A DNA stretch of 64,000 bases, from the NCBI RefSeq assembly GCF_988243305.1, contig NZ_OZ547136.1. One strand, given 5' to 3'. A program made the position numbers and the translations under genes. Of this stretch, positions 39,463 to 64,000 are shown piece after piece. The notes below the pieces were generated by a model. The model ran no database searches and was not told where the DNA came from. It worked only from the letters and a program-made list of their open reading frames with translations. The stretch's first letter is position 1. The number at the start of each line of letters is the position of its first letter.

Positions 39463-39748
39463 GCTGCCTCCATACTCTTAAGGTGTATTTATATTACAAC
39501 TTAATTTGAAAGGGGACTATGGCTCTGAAGGAGGAGGTTTATTCAACCGACGCAATTTTGCGTACCTGCTTCATAAGCATCACGCAAAAGCTGCAAAACA
39601 GCATCTTTCCCGGAATCACCATCAAGAACTCGCCGTTCGCTTCTTCCCCTGAAATGATTAACTCCGGTATCATGTGCGCCTTATGTGATTACAACGAAAA
39701 TAAAAACCATCACACCCCATTTAATATCAGGGAACCGGACATAACCCC

Positions 39749-42414: not shown

Positions 42415-43278
42415 ATGAGAATAACGATTGCATCAATAATTTTAATAATTAGCGCCACTGCAATAGGCGCCGAAGATACCCCTTCACATTTTGATATTCC
42501 CGAGCAAGTATTAAATAATATTACGAAGGAATCACGAAATAAACTGCAGGATATCATTGCCAAGGCTCAACATGGCGATAAAGCCTCACAAACGGTGATG
42601 GGACTCATATACCTGAATGGTCTATCTGAAAGTCCTTCAGTGAAGGATATAAACAAAGCATTTTATTGGCTCAACCTTGCAGCAAAGCAAAATTATGATG
42701 AAGCTGAATTTTACTTAGGACAGATTTATCATTACGGATATGATAATACGGGGCCTAACTATCGTATTGCGATATACTGGTATGAGAAAGCGGCAGAAAA
42801 AGGGAATGAACAAGCTCAAATAAACTGTGCGAATATTTATCAATTTGGCCCACAGGAATTCCAAAACATTAACAAAGCCAAGTATTGGCTTCAGAAAGCA
42901 GTACAGAAGGACAATCCTATTGCACATGCAAACTTAGGGATTATCGGAATTCAAGAGAATAAGTATGCTGAAGCTATCCCTCACTTAAAAATAGCGGCAG
43001 AAAAGGGTCAGCGACTCGGCCAATATAATTACGGGACACTTTTTTTTAATGGTCAGGGCGTTCCCAAAGATATACGACAGGCTAAATACTGGTTTGAGAA
43101 AGCTGCTACTCAAAACTTACCTATTGCACAAATTACTTTAGGACAAATTTATGCCTGGGGGCTTGATGAAAATGGCATAAATAAAGAAGAAGCGTTGCTC
43201 TGGTTAAATAAAGCCAAAGCCCAAGGTCAATTTACTGATAAACAGATCAACGCCATTATTTCAAAAAAAATAGACTAA
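42415..43278 (+). CDS. Secreted Sel1-like repeat (SLR/TPR-like) protein
   Basis: 287 aa with signal-peptide-like N-terminus MRITIASIILIISATAIGA and at least five Sel1 motifs (e.g. KAFYWLNLAAKQNYDEAEFYLGQIYHYG, IAIYWYEKAAEKGNEQAQINCANIYQFG, QAKYWFEKAATQNLPIAQITLGQIYAWG). Markedly AT-rich compared with the flanks. Confidence 0.8.
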   Translation: MRITIASIILIISATAIGAEDTPSHFDIPEQVLNNITKESRNKLQDIIAKAQHGDKASQTVMGLIYLNGLSESPSVKDINKAFYWLNLAAKQNYDEAEFYLGQIYHYGYDNTGPNYRIAIYWYEKAAEKGNEQAQINCANIYQFGPQEFQNINKAKYWLQKAVQKDNPIAHANLGIIGIQENKYAEAIPHLKIAAEKGQRLGQYNYGTLFFNGQGVPKDIRQAKYWFEKAATQNLPIAQITLGQIYAWGLDENGINKEEALLWLNKAKAQGQFTDKQINAIISKKID

Positions 43279-43290
43279 CTCCAAACCAAA

Positions 43291-43959
43291 ATGCTCAAAT
43301 CAATGCCATCTATTCGCTATCACAAAATAGAATCATTTAATTATCGCCATATATGGGCCGTTGGTGATATTCATGGCGATTATCAATTATTACAATCCCG
43401 CTTACACCAACTCTCTTTTTGCCCCTAAACTGACTTACTTATTTCCGTAGGCGATAATATTGATCGTGGGCCGGATAGTCTTAACGTGCTACGCCTGTTA
43501 AACCAGCCCTGGTTTACATCGGTTAAAGGCAACCACGAGGCAATGGCGCTTGATGCCTTCGCGACTGGCGATGGCAATATGTGGCTTGCCAGTGGCGGTG
43601 ACTGGTTCTTTGAGTTAAATGATTCAGAACAAAAAGAAGCAATAGACCTGTTGCTTCGCTTTCATCATCTTCCGCATATTATAGAAATCACTAACGATAT
43701 TATAAAATATGTTATCGCACATGCAGATTATCCGGGTGATGAATATCAGTTTGGCAAGGAAGTAGCGGAAAGAGAGGTACTCTGGCCTGTTGATCGCGTG
43801 CAGAAATCACTCAAAGGCGAGTTAAAAGAAATAAACGGTGCCGACTGTTTTATCTTCGGGCATATGATGTTTACAAATATCCAGACATTTGCCAATCAGG
43901 TTTATATTGATACCGGCTCGCCGGAAAGCGGGCGGTTATCGTTTTATAAAATAAAATGA
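43291..43959 (+). pseudogene. pphB: Ser/Thr protein phosphatase 2 (PP-lambda family), interrupted by in-frame TAA at about 43426-43428
   Basis: Frame reads MLKSMPSIRYHKIESFNYRHIWAVGDIHGDYQLLQSRLHQLSFCP-stop-TDLLISVGDNIDRGPDSLNVLRLLNQPWFTSVKGNHEAMA...; the stop lies between the GDxHG and GDxxDRG metallophosphatase motifs. Confidence 0.8.
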
Positions 43960-44247: not shown

Positions 44248-45675
44248 TTATTGACGTGCGGCCAGCATAGCGGTCAGTTTTTCAGCCCAGGCTTTGGTTT
44301 CCGGTAAATCCACCACCGGCTGGCTGTAGTGACCACGGTTGTCCGGGGCGACAGGCGTGGTGGCGTCGATAATCAGCTTGTCGGTGATACCGGCCGGGCT
44401 TGAGCCGGGGTCGAGTTCCAGCACGGACATATTCGGCAACTGCACCAAATCCCCTGCCGGGTTCACTTTCGAAGAGAGCGCCCACATCACCTGCGGCAGG
44501 TTGAACGGATCAACGTCTTCATCGACCATAATCACCATCTTCACGTAGCCCAGACCGTGTGGCGTGGTCATCGCACGCAGGCCCACCGCGCGGGCAAAGC
44601 CACCGTAGCGTTTTTTGGTGGAGATAATCGCCAGCAGGCCGTGGGTGTACATGGCGTTCACCGCCTGCACTTCCGGGAACTCGGCTTTCAGTTGCTGATA
44701 CAGCGGCACGCAGGTGGCTGGCCCCATCAGGTAGTCGATTTCTGTCCACGGCATGCCGAGGTACAGCGATTCGAAAATCGGCCTGGTGCGGTAAGAGACT
44801 TTATCGATACGCACCACGGTCATGTTACGCCCGCCGGAGTAGTGCCCGGTAAACTCACCGAACGGCCCTTCGATTTCGCGTTTACGACTTTCGATGACCC
44901 CTTCGAGGATCACTTCTGAACCCCACGGCACATCAAAACCAGTCAGCGGGGCGGTGGCGATCGGGTACGGGCTTTCACGCAGCGCGCCTGCCATTTCGTA
45001 CTCGGACTGATCATATTTCAGCGGCGTGGCCCCCATCAGCGTGATGATCGGATCGTTACCCAAGGTGATGGCAATCGGCAGATCTTCACCGCGTTCTTCC
45101 GCTTTATGCAGATGCAGGGCGATATCGTGCATCGGCACCGGTTGCAGGCCGAGCTTACGTTTGCCCTTCACTTCCATACGATAGATACCGACGTTCTGCT
45201 TGCCGAAGTTATCCGGGTCGAGCGGATCGCGGGAAACCACGCACGCTTTGTCGAGATAGAAACCGCCATCGCCATCGTTTAAACGAAACAGCGGCAGGAT
45301 ATCGAACAGGTTGATCTCGTCGCCATCGACGGTGTTCTGCGCCCAGGCTGGATTGGCGCGGCGCTCCGGGGCAATCGGGAAGTTATCCCAGCGGCGGATA
45401 AACTCATCAATCTGCTTTTTGACCGGGGTGTTTGGCGGCAGGCCGAGGGAAATCGCGTGGTTCTGCCAGGAACCGATGGTATTCATCGCCACACGGGCAT
45501 CGGTAAAGCCGCGAATATTGTCAAACCACAGCGCGGGCGCGCCGTCGCCGATACGCCCGGTGGCGTTAGCTGCTGCTGCCAGATCCGGTTCCGCGTTCAC
45601 CTCTTCGCTGATTTTCAGTAACTGTCCGTGGTCATCAAGCGCCTGTAAAAAGCTGCGTAAATCATCAAATGCCAT
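44248..45675 (-). CDS. UbiD-family (prFMN-dependent) aromatic acid decarboxylase, BsdC/VdcC-like
   Basis: 475 aa with the full-length UbiD fold; sits in operon between the UbiX-like and small-subunit genes. Confidence 0.85.
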   Translation of the reverse strand: MAFDDLRSFLQALDDHGQLLKISEEVNAEPDLAAAANATGRIGDGAPALWFDNIRGFTDARVAMNTIGSWQNHAISLGLPPNTPVKKQIDEFIRRWDNFPIAPERRANPAWAQNTVDGDEINLFDILPLFRLNDGDGGFYLDKACVVSRDPLDPDNFGKQNVGIYRMEVKGKRKLGLQPVPMHDIALHLHKAEERGEDLPIAITLGNDPIITLMGATPLKYDQSEYEMAGALRESPYPIATAPLTGFDVPWGSEVILEGVIESRKREIEGPFGEFTGHYSGGRNMTVVRIDKVSYRTRPIFESLYLGMPWTEIDYLMGPATCVPLYQQLKAEFPEVQAVNAMYTHGLLAIISTKKRYGGFARAVGLRAMTTPHGLGYVKMVIMVDEDVDPFNLPQVMWALSSKVNPAGDLVQLPNMSVLELDPGSSPAGITDKLIIDATTPVAPDNRGHYSQPVVDLPETKAWAEKLTAMLAARQ

Positions 45676-46267
45676 TATTCATTCTCCTGAGAAAAATTCC
45701 GGACCTGCGGCAATCCTTGCCAGCGCCTGGCGTGGGATGTTCGAGGCCAAATTGATCCAGCACGCGGGCTACCACGTGGTGGACAATGTCATCTACCGTT
45801 TCGGGATGGTTATAAAAGGCAGGCATCGGCGGCACCATCGCCACGCCCATGCGTGAAAGTGCGAGCATATTTTCGAGATGGATGGTGCTAAGCGGCATTT
45901 CACGCGGCACCAGCACTAGTTTGCGGCCTTCTTTGAGCACGACGTCCGCCGCGCGCCCTACCAGGCCATCGGCGTAACCGACACGGATACCGGCGAGCGT
46001 TTTCATACTGCACGGAATAACGATCATGCCGTCGGTACGAAAGGAACCTGAGGAGATGGTCGCCGCCTGATCCGCCGGGTTATGACTGAAGTCTGCGAGG
46101 GCAGCAACATCGCGAGCGCTGTAAGGCGTTTCCAGTTCAATGGTGGTTTTCGCCCACTTCGACATCACCAGATGAGTCTCGACATTCGGCATCTCCCGCA
46201 GCGCTTGCAGTAATGCCACCCCAAGAGGCGCACCGGTAGCCCCTGTCATCCCGACGATCAGTCTCAT
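45665..46267 (-). CDS. UbiX/Pad1-family flavin prenyltransferase (BsdB/VdcB-like)
   Basis: 200 aa MRLIVGMTGATGAPLGVALLQAL ... typical UbiX N-terminus; overlaps the start of the UbiD-like gene. Confidence 0.85.
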   Translation of the reverse strand: MRLIVGMTGATGAPLGVALLQALREMPNVETHLVMSKWAKTTIELETPYSARDVAALADFSHNPADQAATISSGSFRTDGMIVIPCSMKTLAGIRVGYADGLVGRAADVVLKEGRKLVLVPREMPLSTIHLENMLALSRMGVAMVPPMPAFYNHPETVDDIVHHVVARVLDQFGLEHPTPGAGKDCRRSGIFLRRMNNGI

Positions 46268-46390: not shown

Positions 46391-46821
46391 CAGATAGTTT
46401 GCCCGGAGTTTACATGGCGTTACGAAATAAAGCGTTCCATCAGTTACGACAGCTTTTTCAGCAGCACACGGCTCGCTGGCAGCACGAGTTACCTGACCTC
46501 ACCAAACCACAGTACGCGGTGATGCGCGCCATTGCTGATAAGCCTGGTATCGAACAGGTGGCACTGATAGAAGCAGCAGTCAGCACCAAAGCAACGCTGG
46601 CAGAAATGTTGGCAAGAATGGAAAATCGTGGCTTAGTCAGACGTGAACATGACGCCGCTGACAAGCGGCGTCGCTTTGTCTGGCTGACTGCCGAAGGAGA
46701 AAAGGTACTTGCTGCGGCGATCCCCATTGGTGACAGTGTGGATGAGGAATTTTTGGGGCGTTTGAGTGCAGAAGAGAAGGAGCTGTTTATGCAGTTGGTG
46801 CGCAAGATGATGAGCAAATAG
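46381..46821 (+). CDS. MarR/SlyA-family transcriptional regulator
   Basis: 146 aa with winged-HTH core (QYAVMRAIADKPGIEQVALIEAAVSTKATLAEMLARMENRGLVRREHDAADKRRRFVWLT); divergent from the decarboxylase operon. True start may be Met12. Confidence 0.8.
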   Translation: MIAADSLPGVYMALRNKAFHQLRQLFQQHTARWQHELPDLTKPQYAVMRAIADKPGIEQVALIEAAVSTKATLAEMLARMENRGLVRREHDAADKRRRFVWLTAEGEKVLAAAIPIGDSVDEEFLGRLSAEEKELFMQLVRKMMSK

Positions 46822-46941
46822 GATGCTGATTGCCGGGTAGGACGCTGACGAGTCTTATCCAGGCGACAAAACACACCGACTTCCCAAACAAAAGAAAAAG
46901 GCCAGCCTCGCTTGAGACTGGCCTTTCTGACAGATGCTTAC

Positions 46942-47920
46942 TTACTCGCGGAACAGCGCTTCGATATTCAGCCCCTGCGTTTGCAGGATTTCGCGCAAAC
47001 GGCGCAGGCCTTCAACCTGAATCTGGCGAACACGTTCACGGGTGAGGCCAATTTCACGACCTACATCTTCCAGTGTTGCCGCTTCGTACCCCAGCAAACC
47101 GAATCGACGTGCCAGTACTTCACGCTGTTTGGCGTTCAGCTCGAACAGCCATTTGACGATGCTCTGCTTCATATCGTCATCTTGCGTGGTATCTTCCGGA
47201 CCGTTCTCTTTTTCATCGGCCAGGATGTCCAGCAACGCTTTTTCGGAATCACCACCCAGCGGGGTGTCTACCGAGGTAATGCGCTCGTTAAGACGAAGCA
47301 TACGGCTGACGTCATCAACTGGCTTATCCAGTTGCTCTGCGATCTCTTCCGCACTTGGTTCGTGGTCCAGTTTATGGGACAACTCGCGTGCGGTTCGCAG
47401 GTAAACGTTCAGCTCCTTTACGATGTGAATCGGCAAACGAATAGTACGGGTTTGGTTCATAATCGCCCGTTCGATCGTCTGGCGAATCCACCAGGAAGCG
47501 GAAACCACGTTCCGGGTCAAACTTCTCTACCGCGCGGATCAGCCCCAGGTTGCCCTCTTCGATCAGGTCCAGCAACGCCAGACCACGATTGCCATAACGG
47601 CGGGCAATTTTTACCACCAGACGCAAGTTACTCTCGATCATCCGGCGGCGGGAGGCAACATCTCCACGCAGTGCGCGACGCGCAAAATAAACTTCTTCTT
47701 CGGCCGTTAACAGTGGTGAATAACCAATCTCACCAAGGTAAAGCTGAGTCGCGTCCAACACACGCTGTGTGGCTCCCTGCGATAACAGTTCCTCTTCGGC
47801 CAAATCGTTATCACTGGGTTCCTCTTCTACTAAGGCCTTTTCGTCAAAAACCTCAACTCCGTTCTCATCAAATTCCGCATCTTCATTTAAATCATGAACT
47901 TTCAGCGTATTCTGACTCAT
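46942..47920 (-). pseudogene. rpoS: RNA polymerase sigma factor RpoS (sigma-38) disrupted by an internal deletion/frameshift of about 14 bp
   Basis: Two overlapping minus-strand ORFs in different frames: 47372..47956 encodes RpoS from [11 protein letters not shown] to [11 protein letters not shown] then runs out of frame; 46942..47520 encodes [14 protein letters not shown] ... LFRE. The junction reads CGCTTC|CTGGTGGATT and residues STYAT are missing. Span is 979 bp against the 993 bp expected. Confidence 0.85.
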
Positions 47921-47982
47921 AAGGTGGCTCCTACCCGTGATCCCTTGACGGAACATTCAAGCAAAAGCCTGGTTCCGCCGAT

Positions 47983-49122
47983 TTATCGCTGCGGCAAATA
48001 ACGCAGCGGGTTTACGGATTTCCCCTTGTAACGAATTTCAAAATGCAAGCGTGTTGAACTGGTTCCGGTGCTACCCATGGTTGCTATTTTTTGCCCCGCC
48101 TTCACTTCTTGTTGTTCCCGGACCAGCATTGTGTCGTTATGGGCGTAGGCACTCAGGTAATCATCATTATGTTTGATGATAATCAGATTACCGTAGCCGC
48201 GCAGCGCGTTACCGGCATAAACAACGCGGCCATCTGCGGTCGCGATAATTGCCTGTCCTTTGCTGCCTGCGATATCAATCCCCTTGTTGCCCCCCTCAGA
48301 AGCGCCAAAGGTTTCGATCACTTTGCCCTCAGTCGGCCAGCGCCAGGTGGAGATAGGCGTACTGGTTGATGTACTGCTGACAGTCGGCTCGGTTGTGCTT
48401 GCTGTTGGTACCGTTACAGGCGCTGTGACCGTGGTCGCAGTTGGCTTGTTGTTCGGCAACATTTTGTTAGCACTCTGTTCACCCGAAGACTCAGAATACG
48501 TAATTGTCGGTTGCGACGCAACAGCAACGGTGGAATTTTGTGCAGGCTTGATCACAACTCCTTGCTCTGCTGCGTCGGCCTGGGTAATGGCATTTCCGCC
48601 AGTGATTGGCGTACCGGAAGCATTACCCACCTGCAAGGTCTGACCAACGTTCAGCGCGTATGGTGCCTGAATATTGTTGCGCTGAGCAAGGTCACGGAAA
48701 TCGTTGCCAGTAATCCAGGCGATATAGAAAAGTGTGTCGCCTTTTTTCACGGTATAGGTACTGCCGCTATAGCTGCCTTTCGGAATGTTCCCATACTGAC
48801 GGTTATAGACGATGCGTCCGTTTTCCATCTGTACCGGCTGCTGAGCTACTGGCTGCACCGGCTGGATTTGCGGTTGTTGAGTGGCCTGAATTTGTGGCTG
48901 CTGTACCGGCTGAATTTGCGGTTGCTGCGCTGTAGACGTCGTTCCCATTTTCGGCGGTGGCGTAATCAACATACCAGAATTGGTATTTGCAGGCGCATTG
49001 CCATTAACGGAGCTGACCGGTGCCGGTGGATTTGAAGTGTCAGAACAGCCTGCCAGCCATAGCGAAACCAGTGACAAAGCCGCAATGCGGCGAACGGTGA
49101 ATTTTGGGCTTCCCGCGCTCAT
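47983..49122 (-). CDS. nlpD: Murein hydrolase activator lipoprotein NlpD (LysM + M23 domains)
   Basis: 379 aa with lipobox LAGCS, QPQIQ repeats and C-terminal M23 peptidase-like domain; rpoS promoters are known to lie within it. Confidence 0.95.
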
Positions 49123-57987: not shown

Positions 57988-58007
57988 TGGGTTTGAAAAT
58001 AGGAGCT

Positions 58008-60414
58008 GGGAGTTCTACCGCAGGGGCGGGGAACTCCAAGTGATATCCATCATCGCATCCAGTGCGTCCGGTTTATCCCCGCTGACGCGGGGAACTCCGT
58101 GTGGGAACTACGAGTAGGCCGTTTTCTCTCGGTTTATCCCCGCTGGCGCGGGGAACTCCAATATCCGCGCCGTACCCAGCAAATGCTGACGGTTTATCCC
58201 CGCTGGCGCGGGGAACTCTACCGCATATTCACCAAAGTCCTCTATTTTGTCGGTTTATCCCCGCTGACGCGGGGAACTCGAGCGGACGCTCGACGATAAC
58301 ACCGATTTGCAAGGTTTATCCCCGCTGGCGCGGGGAACTCCAATATCCGCGCCGTACCCAGCAAATGCTGACGGTTTATCCCCGCTGGCGCGGGGAACTC
58401 TACCGCATATTCACCAAAGTCCTCTATTTTGTCGGTTTATCCCCGCTGACGCGGGGAACTCGAGCGGACGCTCGACGATAACACCGATTTGCAAGGTTTA
58501 TCCCCGCTGACGCGGGGAACTCCCGTCAGGCCGCGTCAATCGTTTAGCCCACGGCGGTTTATCCCCGCTGACGCGGGGAACTCACATGGAGTACATCATG
58601 AACAGACCACTGACCCGGTTTATCCCCGCTGACGCGGGGAACTCAGATTTTAGATGAGATGAAGTTGAATAGTTTACGGTTTATCCCCGCTGACGCGGGG
58701 AACTCATAAATCATTCTTTTCTTTCATCACCTACGACCGGTTTATCCCCGCTGACGCGGGAAACTCCTGTAGACGTTCTTTGGTAATGGTTTTCATCACG
58801 GTTTATCCCCGCTGACGCGGGGAACTCAATACTACAAACATCAAATGCGTTATTTACTGCGGTTTATCCCCGCTGACGCGGGGAACTCTAAGCCGTGACG
58901 AGGGTCGCCGCTGGCGTCAACGGTTTATCCCCGCTGACGCGGGGAACTCTTACAGATGTAATAAATCACACATGTAATAGCCGGTTTATCCCCGCTGACG
59001 CGGGGAACTCGATCGGGAGGATTTTAAACGCTGGTCAATGGCCGGTTTATCCCCGCTGACGCGGGGAACTCAATTACCGGGTGTCTAGTGCTCATACGCA
59101 GCCCGGTTTATCCCCGCTGACGCGGGGAACTCAATTACTGGGTGTCTCGTGCTCATATGCAGCCCGGTTTATCCCCGCTGACGCGGGGAACTCTTTCCCC
59201 CATGCGGGAAGCGCGTGCGATTTCGCGGTTTATCCCCGCTGACGCGGGGAACTCTTTTAGGTGTGCTGAGATTATTTGTCGCGGCGCGGTTTATCCCCGC
59301 TGACGCGGGGAACTCTTATCAGCAGCCAGACCAGCATTCGGGGAATACGGTTTATCCCCGCTGACGCGGGGAACTCATGATCAAATCAGTGCCGAGCTGG
59401 TGCAGATGCGGTTTATCCCCGCTGACGCGGGGAACTCAAAACAGGTTTGCCTGTCGCCCTCCGGTCCACCGGTTTATCCCCGCTGACGCGGGGAACTCCA
59501 ATCCGTTTATTACTTTATTTCTGCCGCCTTCGGTTTATCCCCGCTGACGCGGGGAACTCCAACGTTTTGGTAATCAACGGAAGGAGCTTCGCGGTTTATC
59601 CCCGCTGACGCGGGGAACTCAATAAATTCAGGAGCGGTAACGATATATTTAACGGTTTATCCCCGCTGACGCGGGGAACTCGTAAAGGCGTTGCCCTGTT
59701 CCGTCGCTGTTGTCGGTTTATCCCCGCTGACGCGGGGAACTCATCCGTTAATTATTGAGAGAGCTATCAGCTATCGGTTTATCCCCGCTGACGCGGGGAA
59801 CTCACCATCAGTCCTTGAGCCGAGAAAATCGCCGCCGGTTTATCCCCGCTGACGCGGGGAACTCAGCTATATACGGGAGCAAGATTATAATATCTGCGGT
59901 TTATCCCCGCTGACGCGGGGAACTCTTTCGCCCAATCTTGCGCGCTCTGACCTATCTGGGTTTATCCCCGCTGACGCGGGGAACTCGTGGGTGGCTGCCG
60001 TCGCGGCTGGTGCTGCGGCGGTTTATCCCCGCTGACGCGGGGAACTCACTGAGTATTTGCCTCAAGTGATGTACTGGTCCGGTTTATCCCCGCTGACGCG
60101 GGGAACTCAATATCGCCGTCAATGCCAATATTTTTCCGCGCGGTTTATCCCCGCTGACGCGGGGAACTCGTGAAAATAGAGGAAGGGCGCATTATTGGCG
60201 GCGGTTTATCCCCGCTGACGCGGGGAACTCGCGTCAGAAGCGATTGAATCAATAGCGGATCACGGTTTATCCCCGCTGACGCGGGGAACTCGTCCATTTT
60301 CCCCCTGGAGGCTGTAATTCACCGCGGTTTATCCCCGCTGACGCGGGGAACTCTTATTCAGCCAACGCGGCGCGGGGCTTGTTTGCGGTTTATCCCCGCT
60401 GACGCGGGGAACTC
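58008..60414 (-). CRISPR. Type I-E CRISPR array: 39 full 29-nt repeats plus one degenerate terminal repeat, 39 spacers (31-33 nt)
   Basis: Repeat CGGTTTATCCCCGCTG(A/G)CGCGGGGAACTC at about 61-bp period, i.e. GAGTTCCCCGCG(T/C)CAGCGGGGATAAACCG on the transcribed strand. The degenerate repeat is at the iap end and the AT-rich leader at the cas2 end. Confidence 0.97.
58130..58493 (-). repeat. Tandem duplication (2 x 182 bp) of a three-spacer/three-repeat block inside the CRISPR array
   Basis: Spacers CAATATCCGCGCCGTACCCAGCAAATGCTGA, TACCGCATATTCACCAAAGTCCTCTATTTTGT and GAGCGGACGCTCGACGATAACACCGATTTGCA occur twice in the same order, each copy with the same GGC/GGC/GAC repeat variants; ORF-track peptides are duplicated accordingly. 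Confidence 0.95.
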
Positions 60415-60519
60415 TCTAAAAGTATACATTTGTTCTTAAAGCATTTTTTCCCATAAAAACAACCCACCAACCTTAATGTAACATTTCCTTATTATTAAAG
60501 ATCAGCTAATTCTTTGTTT
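60415..60519 (-). promoter_or_regulatory. CRISPR leader (AT-rich) with array promoter
   Basis: AT-rich segment between the last repeat and the cas2 stop; sets array polarity. Confidence 0.8.
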
Positions 60520-61723
<1,204 letters not shown>

Positions 61724-61738
61724 TTTATTACACCTAAA

Positions 61739-62338
61739 TCACAGTGGAGCCAAAGATAGCAAGCCACATCCCATCGATTTAGCTGGCCCAATACCTTGCT
61801 GTACAAGATCTATTAACGCTGGCGCGTCGTTGATGGTGATCACCCCTTCAAAGCAAACCGTTTGAATCTTTCCACTTTTACCATCACCAGAAAAATACTG
61901 TGGCCGTTCCGATATGGGATGCACATCTTCAACGCGCGCCGCATTGCCCAATTTACGTTGCAACCACGCGATTTGTTCTGCTTCTTTTATTAACGGAACC
62001 CGACAGCGTTTAATATTCCCTTTACTATCCAGGCGCTTTTGATTGTCGAGAATAGTTTTGATCGGATTTGCCCGAAGCCGAAAATAGAGTGGAACACCAA
62101 CCTGAAGTTGAAATTCAACCTGTTTAGTTTTAATGACTGTCGCAACAGCAGTTGAAACAGGCATTTGCGCTGACTGCAATAAAACATGACAGCCTTCTGG
62201 TGTGTTTCGCTTCTCAACATGAAAAAGAAAATCACGAGCAGCATCCGGTCTGTTTGGAAATAAATGCCATAATCCCTGGTGAAGTTGGTAAAGATCCCTG
62301 CTCCAGGCCCTGGCAATGATGACTTTACTGAGATACAT
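61739..62338 (-). CDS. cas6e: Cas6e (CasE) pre-crRNA endoribonuclease
   Basis: 199 aa recognised as CasE. Confidence 0.95.
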   Translation of the reverse strand: MYLSKVIIARAWSRDLYQLHQGLWHLFPNRPDAARDFLFHVEKRNTPEGCHVLLQSAQMPVSTAVATVIKTKQVEFQLQVGVPLYFRLRANPIKTILDNQKRLDSKGNIKRCRVPLIKEAEQIAWLQRKLGNAARVEDVHPISERPQYFSGDGKSGKIQTVCFEGVITINDAPALIDLVQQGIGPAKSMGCGLLSLAPL

Positions 62339-62999
62339 CCATACCTCCTTTAATCACATACCATTCTCGGGAAGCAAATTGTCGAGGTAAGGTGATCATC
62401 GGTTCGTCGCGCGCCGTAAATTTTAAATGATGCCCTGTAACTGATTCCTCACTATAAATATCGCCGCCAACGGGCTCATAATTTAATAGCGCCTTCTGAG
62501 GATCCGATGCCTGACATGTCCCCAAAAAAAGCGGGTGTGTTAGTGGGCAACTTCTCCGCCCCAGGTAGGGTGTATACCGAGGCTTTAATACTGCTTTTTC
62601 AAGTTCTGAGATAACCATCGTTGCATGGGGTGTTAACCAGAGAGCGACGGTAAAGGAGGCATCACATAAATATTCGCGCCATGTTTGAATCGTTTCATGA
62701 CTTTTCAAACCACGGTAATCTTCTCGCGCTCCAAGGACTGTATGGTAATCACGCAACCCCGTTACAGACACACGACGATCGTCAAGAATGAGTTCATCGC
62801 AGCGCACTGCAAATTGCACACTCTCTGATAACACCTGTAATGAAGAAGTATCATCACGTTGGATCCCAAGACAAGCCCCGAGTAGCCCTAATAACCCGCT
62901 TCGGGTCGGAAAACTTCCGGTAGGTCGCGTTCCTTCAAAGGTCGGCAGCCCCCAGGCTTGCATTGGCCCAGCAAGCCGCAAGATCAAATAAGATCTCAT
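62325..62999 (-). CDS. cas5: Cas5e (CasD) Cascade subunit
   Basis: Start trimmed to MRSYLILRLAGPMQAWG. Confidence 0.94.
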   Translation of the reverse strand: MRSYLILRLAGPMQAWGLPTFEGTRPTGSFPTRSGLLGLLGACLGIQRDDTSSLQVLSESVQFAVRCDELILDDRRVSVTGLRDYHTVLGAREDYRGLKSHETIQTWREYLCDASFTVALWLTPHATMVISELEKAVLKPRYTPYLGRRSCPLTHPLFLGTCQASDPQKALLNYEPVGGDIYSEESVTGHHLKFTARDEPMITLPRQFASREWYVIKGGMDVSQ

Positions 63000-63001
63000 G
63001 T

Positions 63002-64000
63002 TCATGCCTCGCCATTATTACGAACCCAGGATTTTAACTGTTCTAAAGTAGGCATTTGTTTAACTTGAGCAGTAATTGGGTCTACATCAGATAAGCTGAA
63101 TTGCGCAGCAGCTCCGTTCAGACCATATCCATTGGCAACGCGATCCCAATATTGATTAAACGCCTGTATAGACGGTTGCAAAAAGCCATCTTTCGCTTTA
63201 ACAGCTTTTTCAAAAGCATTTGCCATAGAAAGTGGCATATCGGAGAAATTAACCATTACCATATCCGCAGGGTTAAAAGCGGCATAAGTACGCTGTTTTG
63301 CTCCAGGGACCTCTGTTGCCAGCATATGAACAACATTGGTTGCAATTTCCAGAGCCTGCTCCCTGGAGGCACCACCTAAATTTTCCTGAAGTTGAGCGAG
63401 GTTAATGTTGGCGTAACGATAAAAAACACCCGATGAAAATTCCTGAGTTCCCAGATGTGCAGAACCTTGTTCCTGTAAATCATCTACAGCGGTGAACCAG
63501 TCAATATCTGAATCAACCTGATGAGTAGTGATCGCATGCGCAATGGACATTGCACCATCAACTTTTCCCAACTCACTCATCATGCCGCTGGTTGCCATTC
63601 TTCCGCTAAGCGCAATATCAACACCCTGCTGTAAATTCACACGTATGGCGGCAATATCTTCCTTAAGAACTTTGAGCAGCTTTTTATCATCCAGATTATC
63701 AGCCTCTGCTTTTGCAACCTGCTCACAGAACCAGGCTATTTCTCCCACAACCCAGGGAGTAACCGCATCGGCAGAAATCTTTTCGGCTTCATCAACTAAT
63801 TTACCGGAGAGCAGCGCTAATGTCTTATCGATGATTTTTTGGTCAAAACGTTCACCAAGTTTTTGCCGAAGAACATCACGTAATTGTGCAAGATGAATTG
63901 TTCTGAGACTGGATTCACCAATATTTTGTGCGTAATAATCACTTTTACGCATCGCACGTTTAAGGCTTTGACTTGAAATTCTTACTCGTCTTTTCCCGCC
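63002..64000 (-). CDS. cas7: Cas7e (CasC) Cascade backbone subunit, 5' end beyond the window
   Basis: C-terminal 316+ aa of a CasC-like protein; the frame is open to the window edge. Confidence 0.85.

Follow-up and report, generated by a model that had tools for sequence, protein, structure and literature searches.

A 14-bp deletion within sigma region 2 predicted to inactivate rpoS in one strain of a widespread Escherichia coli clone

The rpoS locus

The window, i.e., the whole stretch of 64,000 nucleotides that was analyzed (contig NZ_OZ547136.1), carries rpoS on the minus strand (46942-47920, 979 bp) between its usual flanks, namely nlpD upstream and a MarR/slyA-like gene downstream. The main features of the locus, in window coordinates, are the following:

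46942..47920, minus strand: rpoS pseudogene, 979 bp, all retained bases being those of the wild-type 993-bp gene, minus 14 bp
47494..47495, minus strand: deletion junction, the wild type carrying GTTGCGTATGTTGA (plus strand) between both bases, which is rpoS nt 426-439
47983..49122, minus strand: nlpD, intact, with no amino-acid difference from strain A10 and with DNA the same as in L005 and L012, two of the clone-mates listed further below
46888..46923, minus strand: terminator-like hairpin 3' of rpoS, with GGCCAG...CTGGCC and then a stretch of T on the gene strand, as read by eye

In the ORF list, the locus is covered by two minus-strand ORFs, 47372..47956 and 46942..47520, which overlap and are read in different frames. 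In an alignment with the annotated 993-bp rpoS of strain 7/2 (WP_000081550.1), the gene of the window displays no substitution and a single 14-bp gap at gene nt 426-439, where the bases CTCAACATACGCAA or, equivalently given a 1-nt C ambiguity, TCAACATACGCAAC have been removed. This comparison is deterministic, and chance is no factor in it. When positions 46800-48000 were compared by megablast with 5,426 complete E. coli genomes, thousands of full-length matches were obtained, the best of which align 1,215 bp of the record with 1,201 bp of the query at 98.8% identity, indicating that the sequences are the same but for the 14-bp gap.

Regarding the identity of the gene, 979 of the 979 retained bases match the gene for WP_000081550.1, and the wild-type RpoS protein matches RpoS chains of the PDB with an E value of about 1e-210. 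The gene is located directly 3' of nlpD, in the order nlpD-rpoS-MarR-kpdBCD found in annotated genomes. Within nlpD, rpoS has its main promoter as well as its long 5' leader. The sequence upstream of rpoS is unaltered, and the region of the terminator-like hairpin is the same in relatives with an intact rpoS.

A preliminary description of this DNA had held that rpoS is inactivated by an internal deletion of 14 bp splitting its reading frame into two overlapping ORFs, and had proposed an alignment to wild-type rpoS as a check. That alignment gives one 14-bp gap and a frame that is not continuous. The two ORFs are those at 47372..47956 and 46942..47520, both lengths (979 vs 993 bp) are right, and the junction was quoted exactly, with S143-T147 (STYAT) gone and the frame shifted. 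At the level of the sequence, the frameshifting deletion of gene nt 426-439 can thus be upheld.

Predicted product and domain loss

Two parts of the gene have to be distinguished:

47372..47920, minus strand: remaining translated frame, 182 codons plus stop, comprising 142 native residues and a 40-residue out-of-frame tail
46942..47494, minus strand: stranded 3' part of rpoS, wild-type codons 148-330, comprising the end of region 2 and regions 3 and 4, out of the start-codon frame

Translation from the ATG at 47920 yields native RpoS through ...FDPERGFRF, continues with LVDSPDD..., and stops at codon 183, the frame shift falling after Phe142, within sigma region 2. In wild-type RpoS, the Pfam domains are region 1.2 (residues 56-88), region 2 (94-163), region 3 (174-248), and region 4 (262-315). 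In the 182-residue product, Sigma70_r1_2 is found at 56-88 and Sigma70_r2 at 94-142, where it ends at model position 49 of 71; the native part of the product consists of region 1.2 together with the first two-thirds or so of region 2. Since native sequence stops at this model position, the end of region 2 is lost as well, besides regions 3 and 4. The preliminary description was correct about the loss of regions 3 and 4, but not about the end point, which it had placed shortly after region 2 and which lies inside it, at residue 142. The stretch FSTYATWWIRQ is the most conserved one of sigma-70-family proteins, and the lost segment corresponds to the sigma-70 residues around Y430 and W433, by which the -10 element is opened. 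In sigma-70-family structures, the main contact with the core enzyme is made by the first two-thirds of region 2.

The stranded 3' part is open as a 192-codon ORF from a TTG at 47520, and gene callers give a 146-aa ORF from an internal TTG, which overlaps the stop of the upstream frame. A single polypeptide harboring regions 1.2, 2, 3, and 4 is no longer encoded, regions 3 and 4 being out of frame; the rpoS of the window is a pseudogene and no functional member of the sigma-38 family. The lesion, with its shift after residue 142 and stop at codon 183, is predicted to abolish the protein.

Relatives and age of the allele

Four clone-mates were examined, in addition to which more than 30 further similar places were found:

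L005 (GCA_966574595.1): 12,474 bp compared, no mismatch to the window, one 14-bp gap, 330-aa RpoS
L009 (ERZ1741622): 7,068 bp compared, no mismatch to the window, one 14-bp gap, 330-aa RpoS
L012 (GCA_040707375.1): 20,603 bp compared, no mismatch to the window, one 14-bp gap, 330-aa RpoS
L014 (metagenome scaffold, ERZ28589725): 13,376 bp compared, no mismatch to the window, one 14-bp gap, 330-aa RpoS

These four nearest relatives are all wild type at rpoS, as would be the case for a lesion at the tip of the tree. That 14 bp make up the sole difference from clone-mates in 20.6 kb points to a very recent event, specific to this strain and superimposed on a widespread clone. Among complete RefSeq E. 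coli genomes, the best matches reach no more than 98.4-98.9% identity to the window over 25-kb stretches; the clone seems to be common in draft and metagenome data and to have no close relative among the complete genomes searched.

With a 101-bp query across it, the junction was found in none of the 5,426 complete E. coli genomes, the sole full-coverage, high-identity match being a different lesion, i.e., the duplication of strain 8B considered below. The clustered protein table has no entry for the exact 182-aa product, and no report of Δnt 426-439 was found when the literature was searched for a 14-bp rpoS deletion. While this allele seems to be unrecorded, rpoS loss as a phenomenon is ordinary and already known. 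Split rpoS genes can be found by the hundreds in public assemblies, where 487 contigs have a generic 146-aa C-terminal fragment of RpoS as a gene call of its own.

Neighboring genes and the mutS-rpoS segment

Among the 28 genes from hycB to cysC that were checked against strain A10, 25 are intact; the exceptions are rpoS and the two following genes:

43303-43959, plus strand: pphB (serine/threonine phosphatase 2), GAA to TAA at codon 42 (E42*), with the stop at 43426-43428
45665-46267, minus strand: kpdB/ecdB (UbiX-like decarboxylase subunit B), contraction of CCCC to CCC, with the indel near 45734

The E42* allele of pphB leaves a 157-aa residual ORF from a GTG at 43486 and is present on more than 160 public contigs. 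The contraction in kpdB rewrites the last 18 residues, extends the protein from 197 to 200 aa, and creates an overlap with kpdC; this 200-aa form, which some records annotate as a normal protein, is present on about 177 contigs. Public assemblies thus contain each of these two products, the pphB fragment and the longer kpdB form, on some 160-180 contigs or more, and all examined relatives with both alleles have a 330-aa RpoS. The mutS gene is intact, without any amino-acid difference from strain A10, and for this reason there is no sign of a mutator background.

The gene order is mutS, a TPR/Sel1 gene, pphB, kpdD-kpdC-kpdB, a slyA-like MarR gene, and rpoS, with ygbI-ygbN absent, and the mutS-rpoS segment is collinear with strain A10 over 25 kb. 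One published layout of the mosaic o454-nlpD region, pattern I (O157:H7/EHEC-1 type; PMC4209514), likewise has no ygbI-ygbN (o454) and has kpdD-kpdC-kpdB and the slyA-like MarR gene adjoining rpoS. It represents a species-wide gene-content polymorphism, rather than a rearrangement confined to this strain, and is unrelated to the rpoS deletion. Here, pphB has a lineage-specific stop codon in addition. The segment had been called remodelled in the preliminary description, a view that has to be abandoned in favor of a natural layout, pattern I, collinear with strain A10 (PMC4209514). As for pphB, which had been presented as a second inactivated gene beside rpoS, the stop codon is there but the connection is not, E42* being found on more than 160 contigs and the examined relatives being rpoS-intact.

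Some further observations concern the variable parts of the window. A 287-aa Sel1/TPR-repeat gene (42415-43278, plus strand), located between mutS and pphB, is present in strain A10 and absent from the layout of strain 7/2, which bears ygbI-ygbN, and constitutes a variable piece of the mosaic. The ygbA-mutS intergenic region has a single extra T relative to strain A10, at 39465. Beyond iap, a CRISPR array and type I-E cas genes occupy about 58000-64000, which is the most divergent part of the window: the best public matches share only about 92-98% identity with it, and numerous indels affect the array region.

Alternative explanations

Could the strain in truth have an intact rpoS, the deletion being an assembly or sequencing artefact? 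Indel errors do happen in long-read assemblies, and the window is supported by assembled contigs rather than by inspection of its own reads, but a loss of 14 bp in non-repetitive, non-homopolymer sequence would be an atypical error. Moreover, two further public read sets, ERR15423954 (34-kb contig, 100.000% identity to the window over 20,549 bp, no gaps) and ERR15422816 (11.9-kb contig, 100.000% identity over 11,920 bp, no gaps), have given contigs that code for precisely this 182-aa product; both sets could stem from the isolate that is also the source of the window. The lesion is thus not missing from other read sets of the clone, and the same junction in two read-set assemblies answers the worry about assembly error raised in the preliminary description. 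Over the 25 kb collinear with strain A10, only three indels are observed, and as the two besides rpoS are common to many independent assemblies, the assembly can be regarded as clean. An artefact is very unlikely, and the deletion is taken to be real. Just as unlikely is regional decay, or one remodelling event, as a common cause of the rpoS deletion, the pphB stop, and the unusual gene content between mutS and rpoS. It is true that pphB E42*, the C-terminal frameshift of kpdB, and the 14-bp rpoS deletion lie within 4.5 kb while the 25 other genes in 25 kb are intact. However, the abundance of the pphB and kpdB alleles (about 160-180 contigs or more) argues against such a link, as do the intact 330-aa rpoS beside both alleles in all examined relatives, including clone-mates differing by the 14 bp alone, and the gene order mutS-TPR-pphB-kpdDCB-MarR-rpoS, which is collinear with A10 and fits pattern I (PMC4209514). 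Since there are relatives with the pphB and kpdB alleles but an intact rpoS, the lesions are separate in time and belong to different branches; those of pphB and kpdB are best read as older lineage markers, unrelated to the rpoS deletion. A Shigella-like genome decay was considered and dropped, no IS elements being found and 25 of the 28 checked genes being intact.

It can also be asked whether some function persists, through rare +1 frameshifting or downstream re-initiation, in which case the allele would be attenuated or neomorphic and not null. Such low-level events may be conceivable, given that the 3' part is open as the 192-codon ORF from TTG 47520 and as the 146-aa ORF overlapping the upstream stop, and that internal re-initiation is known for the rpoS amber allele of K-12. 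Nevertheless, the junction TTC CTG GTG offers no slippery run, stop, rare codon, or homopolymer, and no signal for programmed frameshifting or slippage is apparent at ...CGC TTC CTG GTG GAT.... Even if the frame were perfectly restored, the protein would lack STYAT where region 2 is most conserved, neither downstream ORF includes the initial two-thirds of region 2, to which core binding is ascribed, and no convincing ribosome-binding site precedes either TTG when the sequence is read directly. Residual activity is accordingly given very little credence, and a split sigma factor reassembled from both half-ORFs is very unlikely.

Comparison with known rpoS alleles

Loss of rpoS function is readily selected on succinate in pathogenic strains, with deletions and duplications among the alleles (PMC2700278), and rpoS mutations recur independently within single infections (PMC7845604). 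Loss-of-function alleles also accumulate in laboratory storage, according to the passages in which PMC7527412 and PMC10401003 both cite Bleibtreu 2014. In agreement with the preliminary description, rpoS loss is a known polymorphism, common in the literature (PMC2700278, PMC7527412, PMC7845604, PMC10401003). As with the known alleles from Suc++ VTEC, stored cultures, and infections, a small inactivating lesion is observed here in an rpoS that is normal in all other respects; it is located at a branch tip, with wild-type close relatives and a predicted truncation of RpoS. Unlike them, Δnt 426-439 occurs in no complete E. coli genome (n = 5,426) and is known here from sequence alone.

Two individual alleles can also be compared with it. 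In the O111:H8 strain 8B (NZ_CP077473.1), rpoS is annotated as a frameshifted pseudogene, and the frameshift affects the same five codons. It results from an 8-bp tandem duplication of TCAACATA (nt 427-434), which has the same left breakpoint as the deletion described here; it is, however, a duplication and not a deletion, leads into a different reading frame, and is found in an unrelated background with several synonymous differences. This shared left breakpoint may reflect either coincidence or a locally fragile site. The rpoS of ECOR6, a strain from a collection of natural isolates, also has an internal deletion, by which the same part of region 2 is removed, but it spans 354 bp (nt 298-651), is in frame (118 codons), and is associated with a different mutS-rpoS layout (PMC4209514).

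Origin of the deletion

The ends of the deletion share a single C, i.e., 1 nt of microhomology, instead of the flanking direct repeats of several bases on which repeat-mediated slippage would depend, and the wild-type DNA around the site, folded as a single strand, does no better than shuffled sequence (z = 0.55). The models of repeat slippage and of a hairpin were dropped on account of this 1-nt repeat and this fold, respectively. A CGC...CGC repeat 14 bp apart was likewise rejected as the cause, because it would yield a different junction. The mutation is treated as a presumably spontaneous short deletion. It may have originated in a host, in the environment, or in laboratory storage.

Among about 5,409 genomes, the 115 bp around the site are disturbed in 4, and gross disruption across 1.2 kb is seen in 22, a count confined, outside these 115 bp, to gross lesions; these numbers give no support to an indel hotspot at the site. 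It would be a rather long shot that either the STYAT codons (nt 426-440) are a recurrent indel hotspot, as the 8-bp duplication starting at the same base in an unrelated O111:H8 strain might suggest, or the clone with the 14-bp deletion circulates in nature as an RpoS-null lineage. Should ERR15423954 and ERR15422816 represent separate isolates, such a natural RpoS-null lineage might exist, and this would argue against a storage-only origin of alleles of this kind.

Functional interpretation

The reading favored here, and held with high confidence, is that of a genuine, recent, and strain-specific null allele of rpoS. The loss of 14 bp would have been spontaneous and essentially without a flanking repeat, taking codons 143-147 and shifting the frame inside region 2. 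The sole product from the normal start would be a 182-residue polypeptide devoid of the end of region 2, with its conserved STYATWW segment for promoter melting and -10 recognition, and of regions 3 and 4. Because the STYATWW segment and regions 3 and 4 are lost, promoter recognition should be impossible for this product. The cell would be expected to act as RpoS-negative, without the sigma-S-dependent response (catalase HPII, glycogen, acid and oxidative resistance, rdar/curli). This null phenotype, including the lost general stress response, is a prediction drawn from the gene itself. At the same time, sigma-70 would face less competition for core polymerase, and better growth on poor carbon sources could result.

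According to the accepted explanation of rpoS loss, stress protection is traded against nutritional competence by way of competition between sigma factors. This trade-off repeatedly selects for rpoS loss in stored cultures, during nutrient-limited growth, and in infections. By precedent, selection may have favored the present deletion as well (PMC2700278, PMC7845604), although a neutral and very recent mutation would look alike.

Implications

The finding is relevant mainly to work with this strain, which is best treated as RpoS-negative, i.e., predicted to be stress-sensitive, HPII-low, and glycogen-negative, with altered biofilm/rdar characteristics, and to scavenge poor carbon sources better. 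What is observed with it should not be read as typical of the clone, whose other sequenced members are rpoS-intact. For the field, Δnt 426-439 adds one more allele to a long catalogue and raises no new question. Nevertheless, pairing the strain with clone-mates that differ by this deletion alone over 20 kb would provide a convenient natural isogenic comparison.
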